Shown here piece after piece: positions 1,702 to 20,300 of a DNA stretch of 24,704 nucleotides (position 1 is its first letter; every line of letters begins with the position of its first letter). The stretch comes from Gammaproteobacteria bacterium. GTDB lineage: Bacteria; Pseudomonadota; Gammaproteobacteria; UBA9339. A program made the translations under genes and the position numbers. The stretch lies in the NCBI GenBank assembly GCA_018814965.1, contig JAHIYS010000124.1, positions 1 to 24,704 of the forward strand. The letters are read 5' to 3'. The notes under the pieces were generated by a model. The model ran no database searches. It was not told the origin of the DNA and worked only from the letters and a program-made list of their open reading frames with translations.

Positions 1702-3045
1702 ATGAAAACAAATTTCAAATTTAAAATACTATGGGTTTTTACAGGATTAATGTTGTCATACACCCCAACACTTTTAGCACAAGATCCTACGGATGTTGTA
1801 GGCGCTATAACCGCGATGAAAAAAGAAGTTATTAAAGCTTTAAATAACACTACTCAAACTAGCATAGTAGATCAACTAAAAGCGATTAACATCCAAATGA
1901 CTACTTTATTTGATGACACATTCAAAGGTACATTTAATCCCAGCACAGGGAAAATGGAAGAAGTTGGAACTATCGACGACAAAATTACCTTATATGCTCA
2001 AAATTTTTACTCATTGTATAGCACAAAGGATTTTTCTAGCATGAATTTTATGGAAAAAAGCGACGAAAATGAGGAAGCACTACAAAAGCTACAAGCACAG
2101 ATACTCGGATATAACCTCCAACAAAGCATATCAACAAAAATTAATGATGGGAAAGCCCTTCTAGCAGAACCGATTGAAAATGGGAGCAACAATATTGATC
2201 GCGCTTCTTTAGGACTAAATCCCGATCCAGAAAAAGATAAAAGCACCTCTCCTTATGGTAGCTTAAACAGCAACTCTCCAATCGAAAGCAACGCTCCTAA
2301 TATTGAAAGTTTAATCGGTCCAGATAAATATACAGATCAAAAAATGCAGAATAAAGCAAAACTATTCATAAGCTACATTCTCCAAGCAGTACCAGCATCA
2401 AAAAACATTAGCATTCCAAGCAAAGCAGAAGCTGTAAACAACAAAGTTACCATACAACTACCATACGCAAGCCAGGATCTTCCATATACAAGCATAGAGA
2501 TATCAACAAAGGCAAGCTCGTCAGGAAGCGGGAGTGACTTAGATAATATGGAGAAATTTTTAAAGAGAAATCCTCTCTTTCAAGAATTTAAAGCAAAAAT
2601 GCGAGCAAATAACATTTTGCGCTCCCTTTATCTTCAAGGGCTAATAAGCTCATATCAAGCAAGAACTATTGATTTTGACAAAAAAGATGATAAGAGTTTA
2701 GTAGAAAGAGAAAGAGAAGCTGCAATTGCTGGCCTTGATAAACAATATTATGAGGATCTAAAGAAAATGACTGTGGCTGATGTCAATCTTGAAATTTTAT
2801 ACTCAATTAAAACTCTAAATTATTTCCTATGGAAACTCCATCAAGATAATGAGCTAAATGCGCTAGTAATAGGAGCCAGCGGCATGAGGCTAACTGCAGC
2901 AGATATGCAAGAAGAGATGCAATATCTAAAACCAATTGGCGCTCTAATTGCAAATAGGTGCTGGGATTTAGAAAGCGATGCTACCGATGAACGCAAACAA
3001 GCTTGCTCCAATCCGGCTATGGCAGCTTATATGCCAAAACAGTAA
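1702..3045 (+). CDS. icmX: Dot/Icm T4BSS periplasmic protein IcmX
   Basis: 447 aa with a signal peptide (…PTLLA|QDP). Contains NAPNIESLIGPDKY (cf. LNxxSLIxP motif) and a helical C-terminus like IcmX/TraW. Same operon as icmW. The call leans partly on synteny. Confidence 0.75.
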   Translation: MKTNFKFKILWVFTGLMLSYTPTLLAQDPTDVVGAITAMKKEVIKALNNTTQTSIVDQLKAINIQMTTLFDDTFKGTFNPSTGKMEEVGTIDDKITLYAQNFYSLYSTKDFSSMNFMEKSDENEEALQKLQAQILGYNLQQSISTKINDGKALLAEPIENGSNNIDRASLGLNPDPEKDKSTSPYGSLNSNSPIESNAPNIESLIGPDKYTDQKMQNKAKLFISYILQAVPASKNISIPSKAEAVNNKVTIQLPYASQDLPYTSIEISTKASSSGSGSDLDNMEKFLKRNPLFQEFKAKMRANNILRSLYLQGLISSYQARTIDFDKKDDKSLVEREREAAIAGLDKQYYEDLKKMTVADVNLEILYSIKTLNYFLWKLHQDNELNALVIGASGMRLTAADMQEEMQYLKPIGALIANRCWDLESDATDERKQACSNPAMAAYMPKQ

Positions 3046-3361: not shown

Positions 3362-4783
3362 TTAATCTTTAATTCTATCCAACATCAATGTTGTAGAAAA
3401 ACCATCTTCAAAAGGGATAATTACTACCTCATTACCCTGACTTAAAACATGATCGGATCCAGCAATTTCATGCACCTTATAATCACCACCCTTAACCAAA
3501 ATATCAGGATTAATTAATTTGATTAAGCGCTCTGGAGTATCTTCAGAAAAGAGAGCTACCCAATCCACAGAACCCAAAGCAGCTAAAACTAACATACGAT
3601 CTTGTACTTTATTAATCGGTCTTTTAGGACCTTTTAAGCGGGATACTGAAGCATCATCATTTACAATTACAATCAATCTTTGACCAAGAGCTTTTGCTTT
3701 TTCTAAATAGATCACGTGACCAGAATGTAAAATATCAAAACATCCATTGGTAACAACAATTTTTTCACCATGTGCTCGCGCATCTTTAACCTGCTGCAAC
3801 AAATGTTCTTCATCCACAACACCTGCCCATGGATTTTGCTGATGTTGCATTGCGCGTCTTAATTCAGAAATTGAAATTGTTGATGTACCCAACTTCTTCA
3901 CCACTTCACCCGCTGCAATATTAGCAATGAGCATGGCATCATGCAACTCTTCACCAGCAGCCATCGCTGCTCCTAAAGCAGCGATAACAGTATCACCAGC
4001 TCCAGTTACATCATAAACCTCACGCGCTTTTGTTGGTAAATGGATAACTGGCTTATCTTTACAAACCAAGCTCATGCCATGAGCACCACGAGTAATTAAA
4101 ATTGCTTCAAAATTATATTGTTGCAATAACTGCCTCGCTTTAGATTCAATTTCAGCCTCATCACGGCAATGACCAACTACAGCTTCAAATTCTGCCATAT
4201 TTGGCTTAATTACTGTAGCTCCCCGATAAATACTAAAATCTTTGCTTTTGGGATCTACTAAAACAGGCTTCTGCATTTTGCGTGCAAGCTCAATTAATTT
4301 TGTACTATGCTGTAATGTCCCCTTACCATAATCGGATAGAATTACTAAATTGCTATCAGTTAACCGAGTAATATATGCGTTAAAAAATGATTCATCTCCC
4401 CAATCACCAAAATGTTTTTCAAAATCCAAACGGATCAATTGCTGGCTTTGACCAATCACACGCAATTTACAAATAGTAGTGGCATCTGGAACCCGCACTA
4501 AACAATGCGCTATTCCTTCATGATCAAGACCTTTTTCAATAGTTTCTGCAACATGGTCATTCCCAACCAAACCTAAAAGACTGGCCTTACCACCAAGTGC
4601 ATTAATGTTAAAAGCAACATTACCGGCACCACCCACGCGCTCTTCAATATTCTGTACATGCACCACGGGTATAGGAGCTTCAGGAGAGATACGGGATACA
4701 TCTCCTCGCCAATATCTATCAAGCATCACATCCCCAACCACAAGAACTTTAGCTTTTTCAAACGCTGGGATTTTTATTTTCAT
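3362..4783 (-). CDS. hldE: Bifunctional ADP-heptose synthase HldE (heptose-7-P kinase + heptose-1-P adenylyltransferase)
   Basis: GDVMLDRYW, SRISPEAP, SDYGKG, DVTGAGDTV (PfkB kinase); NGCFDILHSGH (HxGH) and KGGDY (cytidylyltransferase-like). Confidence 0.97.
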   Translation of the reverse strand: MKIKIPAFEKAKVLVVGDVMLDRYWRGDVSRISPEAPIPVVHVQNIEERVGGAGNVAFNINALGGKASLLGLVGNDHVAETIEKGLDHEGIAHCLVRVPDATTICKLRVIGQSQQLIRLDFEKHFGDWGDESFFNAYITRLTDSNLVILSDYGKGTLQHSTKLIELARKMQKPVLVDPKSKDFSIYRGATVIKPNMAEFEAVVGHCRDEAEIESKARQLLQQYNFEAILITRGAHGMSLVCKDKPVIHLPTKAREVYDVTGAGDTVIAALGAAMAAGEELHDAMLIANIAAGEVVKKLGTSTISISELRRAMQHQQNPWAGVVDEEHLLQQVKDARAHGEKIVVTNGCFDILHSGHVIYLEKAKALGQRLIVIVNDDASVSRLKGPKRPINKVQDRMLVLAALGSVDWVALFSEDTPERLIKLINPDILVKGGDYKVHEIAGSDHVLSQGNEVVIIPFEDGFSTTLMLDRIKD

Positions 4784-4831
4784 ATGATCTAATTTTTTTA
4801 TTTATCATTTAAATTCATTAGGAACGTATAC

Positions 4832-5323
4832 TTAGGATATTTTACGCTCATGATTCAATAACCACATTTTAATTTTAAGAGTAGTTTGGCCAGTTTTACC
4901 ACAATAACCACCCAAACCTGAAGCTGCAACCACACGATGACAAGGTATAATAATTGGCACAGGATTTCGGCGACAAGCATTACCGATAACCCTAGGGCTA
5001 GTCTTAATAATTTTTGCCAACTCCCCGTAAGTTATAGTTGCACCAACTGGAATTGTTCGCAACAACCTCCAGATTTTTTGTTGTAGCACCGTGCCACTAA
5101 GATTTATTGTTAAATTAAATTTCGAATTTGGATCGCAAAAATATTTTTTTATTTTAGATATAATACGTTTTGCTGCAAGACTGTTAGGAGGAATCAAAGG
5201 TATACTAGGGGACAAAAAATCAATTCGCGCAATTTTCTTGTCGACAATCACTACACCCAACTTACCTAGAATGCTATTTATCACACTGTCGTACTTAAGC
5301 TGCTTCTTCTTGTACAACCTCAT
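4832..5323 (-). CDS. ogt: Methylated-DNA-[protein]-cysteine S-methyltransferase
   Basis: [40 protein letters not shown] and active-site PCHRV. Likely start is ATG 5323, overlapping the rplS 3' end by 29 nt; the ORF-track start 5410 lies deep inside rplS. Confidence 0.9.
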
Positions 5324-16077: not shown

Positions 16078-17165
16078 ATAATTCAAGAACAAACAGATAC
16101 GACTTGATAATATAGCTATTAATACGGTATTTATCAAACCTTCTCTTTCTGCCATCATAGCATTATTGTGTCTAGGCCTCTACGAATACTATATCCAAAC
16201 GCTTGGTATCACGTAATGAATCGTGGCACCTCTCGCGTGATTGTATTCCACGATGATGATGACTATAAAAAGTTTTCAAATCTTCTATTACAAATACATC
16301 GCCGATATCGCTTTGAAATTCACGCATATTGTTTGATGCCCAATCATTACCACATTTTGACATGTACTCCATTAGCCAATTTAAGTCGGGGAATGCGACA
16401 TCTGGATGGATTATATACTCAATATTACAATAGAAAGTATAAAAAAGATGGGGCTTTGTTTCGTGGCCGCTATAAATCAATTTTAGTAGATGCAGAAAAT
16501 TATCTATTACGCCTCAGTCGTTACATACACTTAAACCCATTTAAAGCAGGATTAGTTAAACACCCAGCGAAATACCTTTGGTCTAGTTACCAATTTTACA
16601 GCAAAAATATTATGCCACCTGATTGGCTCTATACGAAAGAAACACTCTCTCGTTTTGGCACAAAACAACAAAAAAACAAATACTCATTATTTGTTATGGA
16701 AAAAACCGACAATGAACTAGAAAGTTTCTACCGCAGAACCAAATTATTACCAATATTAGGATCCGATATATTTCGTAATCAAATCAGCGAAACATATATA
16801 ACAAAACATAACCACTCAAAAGAGATTTCTGATCATAAAAATACCTATATCCCACCAACTCTTCTATATATATGCAAAACGGTTTCAAAATATTATCATG
16901 TTTCTCCAGAATCATTAAAAATAGCAGATCGCATGAAGGGTAATCTGCCAAGAACAATTGCTATCTATTTTGCGGCTGAACTGTCCTGCAAAAAATTCAA
17001 AATCATTGCTGATTTTTTTCAGAACACAAGCAATAAAGGTGTTTCGCAGGTCATTTATCGGATTAACAAACTTAAAACTAGCATCCCTTCTCTAGCTAAC
17101 GATATAAAAAACCTTTACAAACTGATTCAATCTATCCCCTTTGTCGGTTGTTGAGACTTGACCCC
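16014..17165. mobile_element. RAYT-like element bounded by perfect 25-bp inverted repeats
   Basis: GGGGTCAAGTCTCAACAACCGACAA at 16014-16038 and 16048-16072; exact reverse complement at 17141-17165. It encloses only the transposase gene. Confidence 0.85.
16168..17154 (+). CDS. REP-associated-type Y1 (HUH) tyrosine transposase with C-terminal DnaA domain IV-like HTH
   Basis: MSRPLRILYPNAWYHVMNRG, AYCLMPNHYHIL (HUH), LFRGRYKS, LSRYIHLNP and YLWSSY. The C-terminus ICKTVSKYYHVS…PRTIAIY…IADFF resembles DnaA domain IV. GTG start. Confidence 0.9.
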   Translation: MSRPLRILYPNAWYHVMNRGTSRVIVFHDDDDYKKFSNLLLQIHRRYRFEIHAYCLMPNHYHILTCTPLANLSRGMRHLDGLYTQYYNRKYKKDGALFRGRYKSILVDAENYLLRLSRYIHLNPFKAGLVKHPAKYLWSSYQFYSKNIMPPDWLYTKETLSRFGTKQQKNKYSLFVMEKTDNELESFYRRTKLLPILGSDIFRNQISETYITKHNHSKEISDHKNTYIPPTLLYICKTVSKYYHVSPESLKIADRMKGNLPRTIAIYFAAELSCKKFKIIADFFQNTSNKGVSQVIYRINKLKTSIPSLANDIKNLYKLIQSIPFVGC

Positions 17166-17179
17166 ATTACTGATAAAAT
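17151..17179 (+). promoter_or_regulatory. Putative hybrid sigma70 promoter for the amylase gene (-35 inside the right IR)
   Basis: TTGAGA (17151-17156), 17-nt spacer, TAAAAT (17174-17179) preceded by TGA (extended -10). The ATG at 17187 lies 8 nt past the -10. Confidence 0.5.
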
Positions 17180-17186
17180 ACCCACT

Positions 17187-19133
17187 ATGGATCTTTTAGA
17201 GAAATTGACTGCACCTATTTTTAATGACTTTACGCAAGTTGAATTAGATTATCTTCTAAAATCAGCCCAAAAAACAGTGTATGAAAAAGGTTCGGTTTTA
17301 ATTTACGAAGGGGAGATTGGCCATGAGTTTTATCTGATCCTCGAAGGCAAAGTTGATGTTAGCAAAGAAAGTAGCGCTCAGGAAGAAACTATTCCTCTAG
17401 CAACTCTAGGCGTTGGTAGTGTTCTTGGAGAAATCAGCATCATAACCAACAACCCCCGCTCAGCTACAGTTACAGCTATAGAAAAAACCACTGCTTTAGT
17501 AATCAATATTGAAAAAATAAAGCAAGACCCGGATGCGCAATCAATTTATAAAAAATTAATTCAAAATCTTGGCATCGAGCTATCGAAAAAACTAATTTAT
17601 TTTGAAGACAAGTTAATAAAATATGACGCTAAAAATCATGACCAATTCGAAACAACCGAAGATATATCATCCCTAGCTCCAAACTCTATTCTCACTCTTT
17701 TAGGATGGAAATGGTCCGACATAATGCATGAAGCACCATTTCTAGCTGAACATGGATATGACGCCATCAAAATATCTCCCCCTCAAGAATTTATAGTAAA
17801 AAATGGCGATCCTTGGTGGAGCATCTATCAGCCAGTAAGCTATCATTTAAGTAATTTTTATGGCACTGAAGAAGAGTTCATAAAGATGGTAGATTTTTGC
17901 CATGGCTATAACCTAAAAATCTATGCTGATTTAATCTTAAATCACATGGCAGAGTTCATACCAGAAGAACCAACACATGTTGGCACTAACAACACCTCTT
18001 TTACAAAATATCATTATGGACCACTAAATAACGATAATGATTATTATGAGTATGACGATTTCTATCACTTTGCTCACCAAGGAAATAAACAAATCTCCAA
18101 TGAAGATTATTGCAAACTAGAAGGGGTATGGCATTTGGAGCATTATGATTTGCTCAATTTACCTAAAATAAACCTAAAAAATCAACATGCAGCAACCGTT
18201 CTCCGCAAATATGTTAAATATCTTTTATCATTAGGAGTCGATGGCTTTAGAATTGATGCAGCCAAGCATTTAAGCATTAAAGCAGTTGAAAAAATACTCG
18301 CCGGATTAAGAACCCTTGACGGCTTAAGACCATTTATTTACCAGGAATATTACACCGGTGCCCCGATGGGCATCGACGTCTATAGTTTTATGGAAAAGTA
18401 TTTTAAAGTTGGCTATGTTACTGCCTTTAAATATGGCGACTTCCTAGCTGATGCAATTAGAAATCAAAATAACGATTTACAAAAACTAGTGGAATATTCT
18501 TTTGGAAGCTCCTGGATCCACTATCCAGAAAATCGTGCAGTAGTTGTAATTGATAATCATGATACTGAAAGAATGATGTCTAATATGCTAAATTATAAGT
18601 GCACCCAAAATAATGCTTACGTTTTAGCTTATACTTTCATGCTATCTTGGCCGTTTGGGGTTCCTAAAATAATGTCAAGCTTTCACTTTACAAATCATGA
18701 CGATCCTATTCCTAACACATCGGTATGGCAAAACGGACGATGCACTTGCTTTGATGCTAATTCACCTTGGGTAGCTCAACATCGCTGGAACGCTATTGCA
18801 AACATGGTTTTATTTCACAACAGAACCCAAAATGCCCCTGGGACATCACATCTTTGGGCCAACGGCAATCAAGTCGCGTTCTCTAGGGTTTATCAAAAAC
18901 CTAAAAAATATGTGGCTTCAGTTGGATTCGTAGTTATTAATGATACCGATAAACCACTAAACCATCGCTTTGAAACCGGCCTTCCAGATGGGAAATATTA
19001 TGACCTAATAAAGAGCCGATTGGCATCAGGAAAAATGATAGGCCCAACAATAACCGTAGAAAACTATGGGTTTGCAACTATAGAAGTTCCACCTTTTGAT
19101 GCGATAGCAATACTAATCGATTTTATACAGTAA
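17187..19133 (+). CDS. Cyclic-nucleotide-binding domain fused to GH13 alpha-amylase
   Basis: N-terminal CNBD: EGEIGHEFYLILEGKV…LATLGVGSVLGEISIITNNPRSATVTA. Amylase: GWKWSDI, PWWSIYQPVSY, LNHMA, GFRIDAAKH, IYQEY, IDNHD, MSSF, QHRW and a C-domain. ATG 17187 is preferred over TTG 17148, which lies inside the IR. Confidence 0.9.
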   Translation: MDLLEKLTAPIFNDFTQVELDYLLKSAQKTVYEKGSVLIYEGEIGHEFYLILEGKVDVSKESSAQEETIPLATLGVGSVLGEISIITNNPRSATVTAIEKTTALVINIEKIKQDPDAQSIYKKLIQNLGIELSKKLIYFEDKLIKYDAKNHDQFETTEDISSLAPNSILTLLGWKWSDIMHEAPFLAEHGYDAIKISPPQEFIVKNGDPWWSIYQPVSYHLSNFYGTEEEFIKMVDFCHGYNLKIYADLILNHMAEFIPEEPTHVGTNNTSFTKYHYGPLNNDNDYYEYDDFYHFAHQGNKQISNEDYCKLEGVWHLEHYDLLNLPKINLKNQHAATVLRKYVKYLLSLGVDGFRIDAAKHLSIKAVEKILAGLRTLDGLRPFIYQEYYTGAPMGIDVYSFMEKYFKVGYVTAFKYGDFLADAIRNQNNDLQKLVEYSFGSSWIHYPENRAVVVIDNHDTERMMSNMLNYKCTQNNAYVLAYTFMLSWPFGVPKIMSSFHFTNHDDPIPNTSVWQNGRCTCFDANSPWVAQHRWNAIANMVLFHNRTQNAPGTSHLWANGNQVAFSRVYQKPKKYVASVGFVVINDTDKPLNHRFETGLPDGKYYDLIKSRLASGKMIGPTITVENYGFATIEVPPFDAIAILIDFIQ

Positions 19134-19610: not shown

Positions 19611-20300
19611 ATGGTTCTAGGTAAAAAATTTTTTGCCTTCTCTCAGCCTATAGAAAATTTCTTTAAATTTGGAGATAAACTCCATTTTGCCTGGAAAGAT
19701 CTCAACAGCGCATTTTTGGGATGCAGTGATTTTTTAGGTGAGGAATCCGGCTTAACCCCCTCAAACTTGATTGGACTCACCGATAGAGATCTAATTTGGG
19801 GATCGCGCGCTGATCAATATCGTAAAGATGAAGAGATGGTTCTGAATTCAAGATCTACTCGCTTCATCTATGAACCCCTAAAAACAGTAGAAGGCGAAGT
19901 ATCTTTGATCACCTTTAAAACCCCTTTGATTAGCTCATCAGGATTAATAGAGGGAATTTTTGCGGTTGCTTTTGCACTAGAAAAAAACTCTCTACTTGAA
20001 GTAACAAAATTAATAAACTATCTTGGTATATTAACCCCTGACAAAATGTTATCCCATCTGTCAGATCAAACTATCACAAAACATTTATCAAAACGGGAAC
20101 AAGAGTGTTTGTTCTATCTAACCCAAGGAAAGGGCATTAAAGAAATTGCTAAATTACTAACCCTCTCCCCAAGAACTATCGAAACACATATTGATAACAT
20201 AAAATCAAAACTGCACTGCCATTCAAGATCAAGTTTGATTAGCAAGGTTATGGATCCTCGATATAGCTATGAAAAAATAGATTCATCAACCGAATCTTAG
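19611..20300 (+). CDS. PAS_4-domain LuxR-family transcriptional regulator
   Basis: N-terminal PAS-like AWKDLNSAFLGC…LIGLTDRDLIW…FKTPL; C-terminal HTH LSKREQECLFYLTQGKGIKEIAKLLTLSPRTIETHIDNIKSKL; AAGGAG RBS. Confidence 0.9.
   Translation: MVLGKKFFAFSQPIENFFKFGDKLHFAWKDLNSAFLGCSDFLGEESGLTPSNLIGLTDRDLIWGSRADQYRKDEEMVLNSRSTRFIYEPLKTVEGEVSLITFKTPLISSSGLIEGIFAVAFALEKNSLLEVTKLINYLGILTPDKMLSHLSDQTITKHLSKREQECLFYLTQGKGIKEIAKLLTLSPRTIETHIDNIKSKLHCHSRSSLISKVMDPRYSYEKIDSSTES

Follow-up and report, generated by a model that had tools for sequence, protein, structure and literature searches.

Cyclic AMP (cAMP) first came to light as the signal that sets off glycogen breakdown, and in the systems known to us it acts on this process via kinases or transcription factors. 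The subject of this study is a gene that encodes a cyclic-nucleotide-binding domain (CNBD) joined in frame to an alpha-amylase of glycoside hydrolase family GH13. It is located on contig JAHIYS010000124.1 (C32), which was analyzed in its entirety (24.7 kb) and is referred to as the window. The contig belongs to a gammaproteobacterial metagenome-assembled genome (MAG), the source genome (G000), of 1.50 Mb in 251 contigs, with 97% completeness and a G+C content of 37%. If the amylase is gated by cAMP, as is proposed below, the chain from cAMP to glycogen breakdown would be collapsed into one polypeptide, and the protein would be, to our knowledge and within the literature searched, the first case of direct cyclic-nucleotide gating of a glycoside hydrolase.

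Several described systems share one or more features with this protein. The mycobacterial acetyltransferases of the MtPat/Rv0998 type also consist of an N-terminal CNBD joined directly to a bacterial enzyme domain. In these enzymes cAMP relieves autoinhibition, which is the mechanism proposed here for the CNBD-amylase; their output is a GNAT acetyltransferase, whereas that of the window protein is a glycoside hydrolase. An intracellular alpha-amylase that carries an N-terminal sensor for a small ligand and acts on a storage glucan is known from the alga Chlamydomonas reinhardtii (AMA2; PMC11190351). AMA2 is a eukaryotic protein that is activated by glutamine and does not respond to cyclic nucleoside monophosphates (cNMPs) (PMC11190351); its sensor is an ACT domain with an amino-acid ligand, whereas that of the window protein is a CNBD. 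Control of a Streptomyces glycogen-debranching enzyme by cyclic di-GMP is cited in the same article as a further instance in which a nucleotide controls a glucan hydrolase (PMC11190351).

With respect to the catalytic portion, the window protein resembles the alpha-amylases of Pseudoalteromonas haloplanktis (AHA; PDB 1AQH/1G94), Tenebrio (1JAE) and human pancreas (1HNY) in its three-domain fold and Asp/Glu/Asp catalysis. The chloride triad Arg/Asn/Lys is shared with AHA, including the Lys. AHA and the animal-type enzymes are secreted, stabilized by disulfides and bind Ca2+, whereas the window family is without these features and possesses an N-terminal CNBD. Loss of acidic metal-coordinating residues from a GH13 alpha-amylase has a parallel in metal-free AmyY, which is reported to have a CBM20 and neutral residues instead of the acidic ligands (PMC13599479). 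Unlike AmyY, the window family has a near-invariant Lys, and it has lost its disulfides and signal peptide as well. Finally, LamA and LamB of Legionella pneumophila (PMC8262857, PMC5910436) are similar in being amylases of a Dot/Icm-bearing bacterium that probably lives in host cells. LamA is described as being injected by the Dot/Icm system and causing unregulated glycogenolysis in the host, with no CNBD reported (PMC8262857); its injection shows that an amylase of this kind is able to exhaust the glycogen of the host and prevent encystation (PMC8262857; PMC5910436). In a comparison made by description only, the window gene differs from LamA in having a context that points to the bacterium's own glycogen.

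No description of a CNBD fused to a GH13 domain, an amylase or any other glycoside hydrolase was found in the literature searched. A first-pass annotation of the window, made from the sequence alone, had likewise not known the architecture as characterized.

Architecture of the CNBD-Amylase

In the window protein, a chloride-type GH13 alpha-amylase has a CNBD with an intact phosphate-binding cassette where its signal peptide would be. The gene is a single plus-strand frame with possible starts at TTG 17148 and ATG 17187 and a TAA stop at 19131-19133. Use of the ATG yields a protein of 648 aa, in agreement with the N-terminus of its homologues and with their lengths of 630-675 aa. Three Pfam domains score over their gathering thresholds: cNMP_binding spans residues 31-112 (E 3.8e-18), Alpha-amylase covers 185-363 (E 4.4e-15), and Alpha-amylase_C extends over 557-643 (E 3.7e-10). 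The in-frame union of a CNBD with a complete GH13 amylase, as read in the first-pass annotation, is thus one 648-aa open reading frame (ORF), and all of the motifs quoted there are in place (G81-E82...P90-R91-S92-A93-T94; GFRIDA, 353-358; IYQE, 384-387; NHD, 457-459; GVPKIMSS, 491-498).

A search of 5.8 billion proteins, clustered at 90% identity, returned ~68 clusters that share these three Pfam domains and match the query over its full length at 47-78% identity. Next after this family comes a sharp fall to amylases with ≤38% identity over approximately three-quarters of the query. Sixty-two full-length members were aligned and have a mean column identity of 63%. In a tree of the amylase part the family is recovered as a single clade (99% SH-aLRT) whose long stem measures 1.11 changes per site, and since it is monophyletic, the fusion arose once and has been retained. 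An exhaustive search of 1.84 billion representatives at 50% identity revealed, within its best 150 hits, no fusion of a CNBD to an amylase that had arisen independently; from the family itself it yielded one full-length representative, fragments and one member without a CNBD. Other N-terminally extended amylases bear CBM26, F5/8-type-C or X25 modules, which are starch-binding or lectin-like. Among the AlphaFold DB cluster representatives there was no match to the full architecture, the best query template-modeling (TM) score being 0.65 for the amylase part alone. The search of representatives with the CNBD part also uncovered two very large proteins, P0123 (3,779 aa) and P0243 (2,659 aa), with 12-13 separate CNBD-like stretches each.

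The closest solved structure to the CNBD is the CNB domain of PKG I (E 6e-21), and the domain also matches the NCBIfam model NF058543 for mycobacterial cAMP-regulated acetyltransferases (E 3e-11). Across the 62 clusters, the cassette Gly is present in 61 and the Glu in 60; the Arg is found in 45, with Lys in a further 11, and the Ala and Thr are each found in 58. The full cassette (G81, E82, R91, S/T92, A93 and T94) is kept in ~45 of the 62. In the window's order, the canonical GE..R[ST]AT motif occurs in 13 of 13 genomes with an intact gene that were checked. An AlphaFold2 (AF2) model of the fusion has a mean predicted local distance difference test (pLDDT) of 87.5 and a predicted TM score of 0.86. 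Linker residues 155-160 fall below a pLDDT of 50, and the linker is variable in length and sequence over the family.

A Chloride-Type Amylase with Cytosolic Features

By its catalytic triad, fold and chloride triad, the amylase part falls in the chloride-dependent "animal-type" group of GH13 (CAZy GH13_15/24/32). Its closest solved structures are the Tenebrio alpha-amylase (E 2e-64), AHA (2e-61) and the human and pig pancreatic enzymes (~1e-56). Foldseek superimposed the AF2 model on AHA with a TM score of 0.92-0.93 (normalized to target length) and a root-mean-square deviation of 2.2-2.5 Å, and on insect, mammalian and other animal amylases with TM scores of 0.79-0.87. The catalytic residues D357, E387 and D459 are each found in 62 of 62 clusters, as are R355, N457 and K494 of the chloride triad. 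Equivalent chloride-site residues are named in PDB entries for the AHA variants K300R and K300Q and for human variants of R195, N298 and R337. The Ca-site residue H361 and the substrate-binding signature PWW...YQPVSY are also present in all 62 clusters, and N252 in 61.

The first-pass annotation had described this amylase as intact. That description holds for the catalytic and chloride residues and fails for the calcium site and the disulfides. The conserved Ca2+ site of these enzymes has Asn, Asp and His ligands; N252 and H361 remain, and the Asp, which is present in 50 of the 50 nearest non-family homologues, is Lys (K327) in 58 of the 62 family members. A joint alignment with the same 50 homologues revealed eight invariant or near-invariant Cys, corresponding to four disulfide pairs that are gone from the window protein. 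In the family, these Cys have given way to V/I/A, F, Y/F, A, Y/F and M; one pair alone persists, in 15 of the 62 members.

The same homologues have signal-peptide-like leaders in 50 of 50 cases (first 45 residues, judged by eye), so the claim that relatives of this enzyme are normally Sec-exported stands. The claim that the window protein has no signal peptide also agrees with its sequence, as its N-terminus is polar and net negative and no hydrophobic stretch was found there (maximum 15-residue Kyte-Doolittle value in the first 60 aa, 0.73). Combined loss of the signal peptide, the disulfide pairs and the Ca-ligand Asp fits a cytosolic enzyme. We infer an active, chloride-type endo-amylase that would be freed of calcium and disulfide dependence and suited to a reducing, low-calcium compartment. 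P0070, which is nested in the clade, has lost the CNBD and kept the derived cytosolic amylase features, again with no signal peptide. The family also offers a clean natural case of a secreted Ca- and disulfide-dependent enzyme rebuilt for the cytosol.

Distribution and the Glycogen Pathway

In GTDB, the order of the window comprises 22 species genomes, which are spread over 13 genera of a single family. The genomes are 0.4-2.0 Mb in size and uncultured, and the order is a reduced lineage that is probably intracellular. Fourteen of the 22 have an intact amylase gene (G003, in which it is split over contig ends, is included here); it is a remnant in G006, and was not found in the other seven. 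A sample of 400 genomes of the class, from ~240 families, had the gene in the window's own family only, with no match at E ≤ 1e-90 elsewhere. Outside the order, a full-length member is located in a MAG labeled "Chlamydiae" (locus L021), and a 78%-identical homologue bears the NCBI label "Coxiellaceae bacterium".

The glycogen pathway of the source genome is non-classical: the order yielded no GH77, and this genome has no branching or debranching enzyme of GH13, as the CNBD-amylase there is the sole match to PF00128 (GH13). What the genome does encode is a full GlgP, a GH57 enzyme adjoining a GT4/5 glycosyltransferase, and a GDE-type debranching enzyme (GDE_N+GDE_C). It also encodes a fusion of GT3 (PF05693, the eukaryote-type glycogen synthase), DUF3417 and alpha-glucan phosphorylase, which is at least 1,335 aa long and has its 5′ end off the contig (C118; L015:712-4719, minus strand). 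A full-length copy of ~1,420 aa is found in a relative (L115:5563-9837), and the fusion is kept in 13 of the 22 order genomes. In relatives, these genes form a single operon in the order GDE, GT4/5, GH57 and, in some cases, the GT3/GT35 fusion (L115:1004-9837 in G021; L116:807-5279 in G001), while in the source genome the operon genes are spread over contigs C40, C185 and C118. The GDE-GT4/5-GH57 operon is found even in genomes of 0.8 Mb.

The occurrence of the amylase follows that of the glycogen genes. GlgP and GH57 are present in the identical 17 of 22 genomes; of these 17, 14 have an intact amylase and one has a remnant of it, and it is absent from all five genomes that lack the glycogen genes. 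On contig C190 of the source genome (L016:3634-5208, minus strand), glgP adjoins a gene for a 524-aa protein with a domain similar to LepB_N, a Legionella effector domain (E 1e-7).

Divergent members of the family are found in sugar operons. For example, the locus of P0066 reads GT4/5, GH57, CNBD-amylase and a sugar transporter of the major facilitator superfamily (MFS), and that of P0068 reads GH77, GH77, MFS, CNBD-amylase and a small CNBD protein. The latter is on a metagenomic scaffold (L114:1-10403) with all genes on one strand, in which the GH77-containing proteins are giant (1,327 and 1,196 aa) and the stand-alone CNBD is 141 aa long. At the L021 locus, the CNBD-amylase is followed by an OprB porin and a GH77.

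Cyclases and cNMP Receptors

Three class III cyclases are encoded in the source genome: a bare catalytic domain of 209 aa, a CHASE2-linked form and a dCache-linked form. The Lys and Asp/Thr residues seen in these cyclases are ones that we take to specify ATP, as in adenylate cyclases. Cyclases are present in 19 of the 22 order genomes. In eleven genomes of the order, the amylase is the only match to the CNBD family PF00027 (G001, G003, G005, G007, G008, G013, G014, G016, G017, G020 and G021); four of the eleven are 99-100% complete. G002 has the amylase plus one further sub-threshold PF00027 hit, and these 11-12 genomes retain 1-4 adenylate-type cyclases. In the source genome, a CRP-like regulator is the one CNBD protein besides the amylase. 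Since sensor cyclases that are kept in a genome need a receptor, and the amylase is the only recognizable one in those eleven, it is the candidate target of their cAMP.

A quite different use of cNMP signaling exists within the same order. In G009, which has neither the amylase nor glycogen genes, five CNBD-bearing frames of 140, 253, 390, 396 and 970 aa were noted.

Proposed Function

It appears fairly likely that the window protein is an alpha-amylase of the cytoplasm, that cAMP made by the bacterium itself gates it, and that it mobilizes the bacterium's own glycogen. Action in the bacterial cytoplasm is argued for by the glycogen genes of the bacterium itself, by its own cyclases with the amylase often as the sole CNBD protein, and by the sugar operons of the divergent lineages. 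A cNMP-gated enzyme is suggested, indirectly, by the conserved cassette and by the cyclases that are retained in genomes where the amylase is the only CNBD protein.

The proposed sequence of events is as follows. An external cue, possibly derived from a host and perceived in the periplasm, would act on the membrane-bound CHASE2 and dCache cyclases and raise cAMP. The nucleotide would bind the cassette, with E82 contacting the ribose and R91 the phosphate. Binding might then shift the alphaB/alphaC helices (108-132) together with the hairpin and helix of the linker (133-154), by which the catalytic domain would be released or, less likely, blocked. By analogy with the mycobacterial enzymes, cAMP probably relieves autoinhibition, activation being somewhat favored over inhibition. 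Endo-cleavage of glycogen would create more non-reducing ends for the two phosphorylases and GDE, and stored glucan could then be quickly mobilized. If this is right, cAMP signaling in at least 11 species genomes may serve mainly or solely to release stored glucose, plausibly when the CHASE2 and dCache cyclases sense a transition in the life cycle. A ligand-switchable amylase might also be of use in engineering.

A number of observations weigh against this proposal. The cassette Arg is Lys or missing in the deepest branches of the family, including P0066 and P0067, and gating may thus not be universal. Two glycogen-positive genomes (G012 and G015) are without the amylase, and in this order the gene is outside the glycogen operon, between comM and tyrP. 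No GH77 that could handle short malto-oligosaccharide products was found in the order. The occurrence counts overstate independence because the genomes are related to each other. In addition, Dot/Icm is found in every reasonably complete genome of the order, and the distribution is also compatible with export. A complex prediction with the CNBD (1-160) and the amylase (161-648) as separate chains scored 0.00, a result that carries no weight either way on docking.

Alternative Explanations

One alternative is that the CNBD does not gate catalysis and might instead mediate dimerization, localize the enzyme to glycogen or a partner, or bind another ligand, with the amylase essentially constitutive. 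The CNBD does evolve faster than the rest of the protein, identity to the window protein over the family being 27-73% in the CNBD and 53-82% in the amylase part. Its cassette is degenerate in several deep branches, the nested member P0070 has lost the whole domain, and the docking score gave no support for CNBD-amylase contact, which is not evidence against binding. This explanation is nonetheless unlikely given the strict conservation of the cassette in the order and in most clusters of the family, and the retention of cyclases in genomes where the amylase is the only CNBD protein.

A second alternative keeps the cAMP-gated cytoplasmic enzyme and changes its main substrate to malto-oligosaccharides or glycogen fragments imported from a host. 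Consistent with this, divergent members adjoin MFS sugar transporters, the OprB carbohydrate porin and GH77 amylomaltases, and 0.8-Mb genomes retain both the amylase and GlgP. In the window's own order, however, OprB and GH77 were sought and neither was found; the same 0.8-Mb genomes also keep the GDE-GT4/5-GH57 operon, and no maltodextrin transporter turned up, although no systematic search for one was made. Imported glucan as the main substrate is accordingly quite unlikely.

The amylase might also be a Dot/Icm effector that is injected into a protist host and degrades host glycogen, with the CNBD reading host cAMP or cGMP. This was one of two roles put forward in the first-pass annotation; the other, control of the bacterium's own glycogen, is backed by the genomic context. 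In favor of an effector are the IcmL/DotI homologue of the source genome (E 9e-55), the LepB_N-like protein beside glgP, the lack of a Sec signal, the loss of disulfides and the Ca site, which would suit a host cytosol equally, and the documented precedent of LamA, an injected amylase that blocks amoebal encystation (PMC8262857). IcmL, however, is present in 20 of the 22 order genomes with or without the amylase, and being near-universal it is uninformative on this question, so that the effector role gains nothing from its presence. The distribution of the amylase follows the bacterium's own glycogen genes, the cyclases are kept with the amylase often as their sole CNBD receptor, and the operons of divergent members also contain GH57, GH77 and sugar transporters. 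The protein ends in an ordered, hydrophobic strand, the last one of domain C (pLDDT ~95), with no conserved tail or Glu-rich block detected by eye, although a translocation signal might lie internally. IcmL was not found in the "Chlamydiae"-labeled MAG that bears a member, a genome of unknown completeness. Taken on these points, injection into a host is quite unlikely.

A version that joins injection with gating can also be envisaged, in which a Dot/Icm substrate delivered into the protist would read host cAMP or cGMP through its CNBD and destroy host glycogen only in a particular host signaling state, for instance at the onset of encystation. This is likewise quite unlikely; if true, it would be the first effector gated directly by a host second messenger via a CNBD. 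Lastly, a chimeric assembly where the two domains join, a doubt raised in the first-pass annotation, or a pseudogene, as might be suggested by the fragmented state of the MAG (251 contigs), is ruled out by the uninterrupted architecture in 62 clusters from many independent assemblies, by 13 other species genomes that have the same architecture with no stops, and by the syntenic locus comM-amylase-tyrP, and the fusion is real.

Feature Coordinates and Gene Surroundings

Coordinates of the gene, its domains and functional residues, and its neighbors in the window are collected in Table 1.

Table 1. Features of the CNBD-amylase gene and adjacent genes (positions in the window).
Feature	Position	Strand	Basis
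CNBD-alpha-amylase fusion gene, 648 aa + TAA	17187..19133	+	ORF translation, three Pfam domains, 62 full-length homologue clusters
Cyclic-nucleotide-binding domain, residues 1-132 (alphaA, beta-barrel, alphaB/alphaC)	17187..17582	+	PF00027, PKG I match, AF2 secondary structure
Phosphate-binding cassette G81-E82...R91-S92-A93-T94	17427..17468	+	Codons checked, family conservation
Linker, residues 133-164 (beta-hairpin 135-146, helix 148-154, low-confidence 155-160)	17583..17678	+	AF2 model
GH13 (beta/alpha)8 barrel with domain B, residues 165-556	17679..18854	+	PF00128, Foldseek to P. haloplanktis alpha-amylase
K327 at the Ca-binding Asp position of domain B	18165..18167	+	Joint alignment with 50 nearest homologues
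Chloride-site R355	18249..18251	+	Invariant, 62/62 clusters
Catalytic nucleophile D357	18255..18257	+	Tenebrio amylase alignment, 62/62 clusters, codon checked
Catalytic E387	18345-18347	+	Tenebrio amylase alignment, 62/62 clusters, codon checked
Chloride-site N457	18555-18557	+	Invariant, 62/62 clusters
Catalytic D459	18561-18563	+	Tenebrio amylase alignment, 62/62 clusters, codon checked
Chloride-site K494	18666-18668	+	Invariant, 62/62 clusters; opposite chloride-site Arg of Tenebrio amylase
Domain C, all-beta sandwich, residues 557-648, last strand at the protein end	18855..19130	+	PF02806, AF2 pLDDT 92-98 to C-terminus
Y1 (IS200-like) transposase with DnaA-C-like tail, not part of the enzyme	16168..17154	+	Pfam Y1_Tnp + Bac_DnaA_C
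LuxR/GerE-type regulator, 229 aa, N-terminal domain unassigned, between amylase and tyrP	19611-20300	+	

In the order, the amylase gene is found between comM and tyrP. At a 76%-identical locus (L020) only ~257 bp separate comM from the amylase, and tyrP follows the amylase directly. The window differs from its relatives in that the transposase/DnaA-C-like gene lies between comM and the amylase; it ends 33 nt upstream of the amylase ATG. In relatives, a Shine-Dalgarno-like ACGGAA is seen 8-12 nt ahead of the ATG. The corresponding segment of the window (17141-17189) is without this motif, and all that precedes the ATG there is GATAAAATACC and then 8 nt. The amylase mRNA of the window may be leaderless, or its expression altered.

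In G006 (L112 = G006:C17:6500-13500), deletion of the amylase has spared only its last 44 codons, which lie at 1731-1877 (minus strand) with tyrP and comM on either side. Beyond comM at the same locus (3432-5252, minus strand) is a gene for a 606-aa CNBD-patatin-like phospholipase, another fusion of a CNBD to an enzyme.

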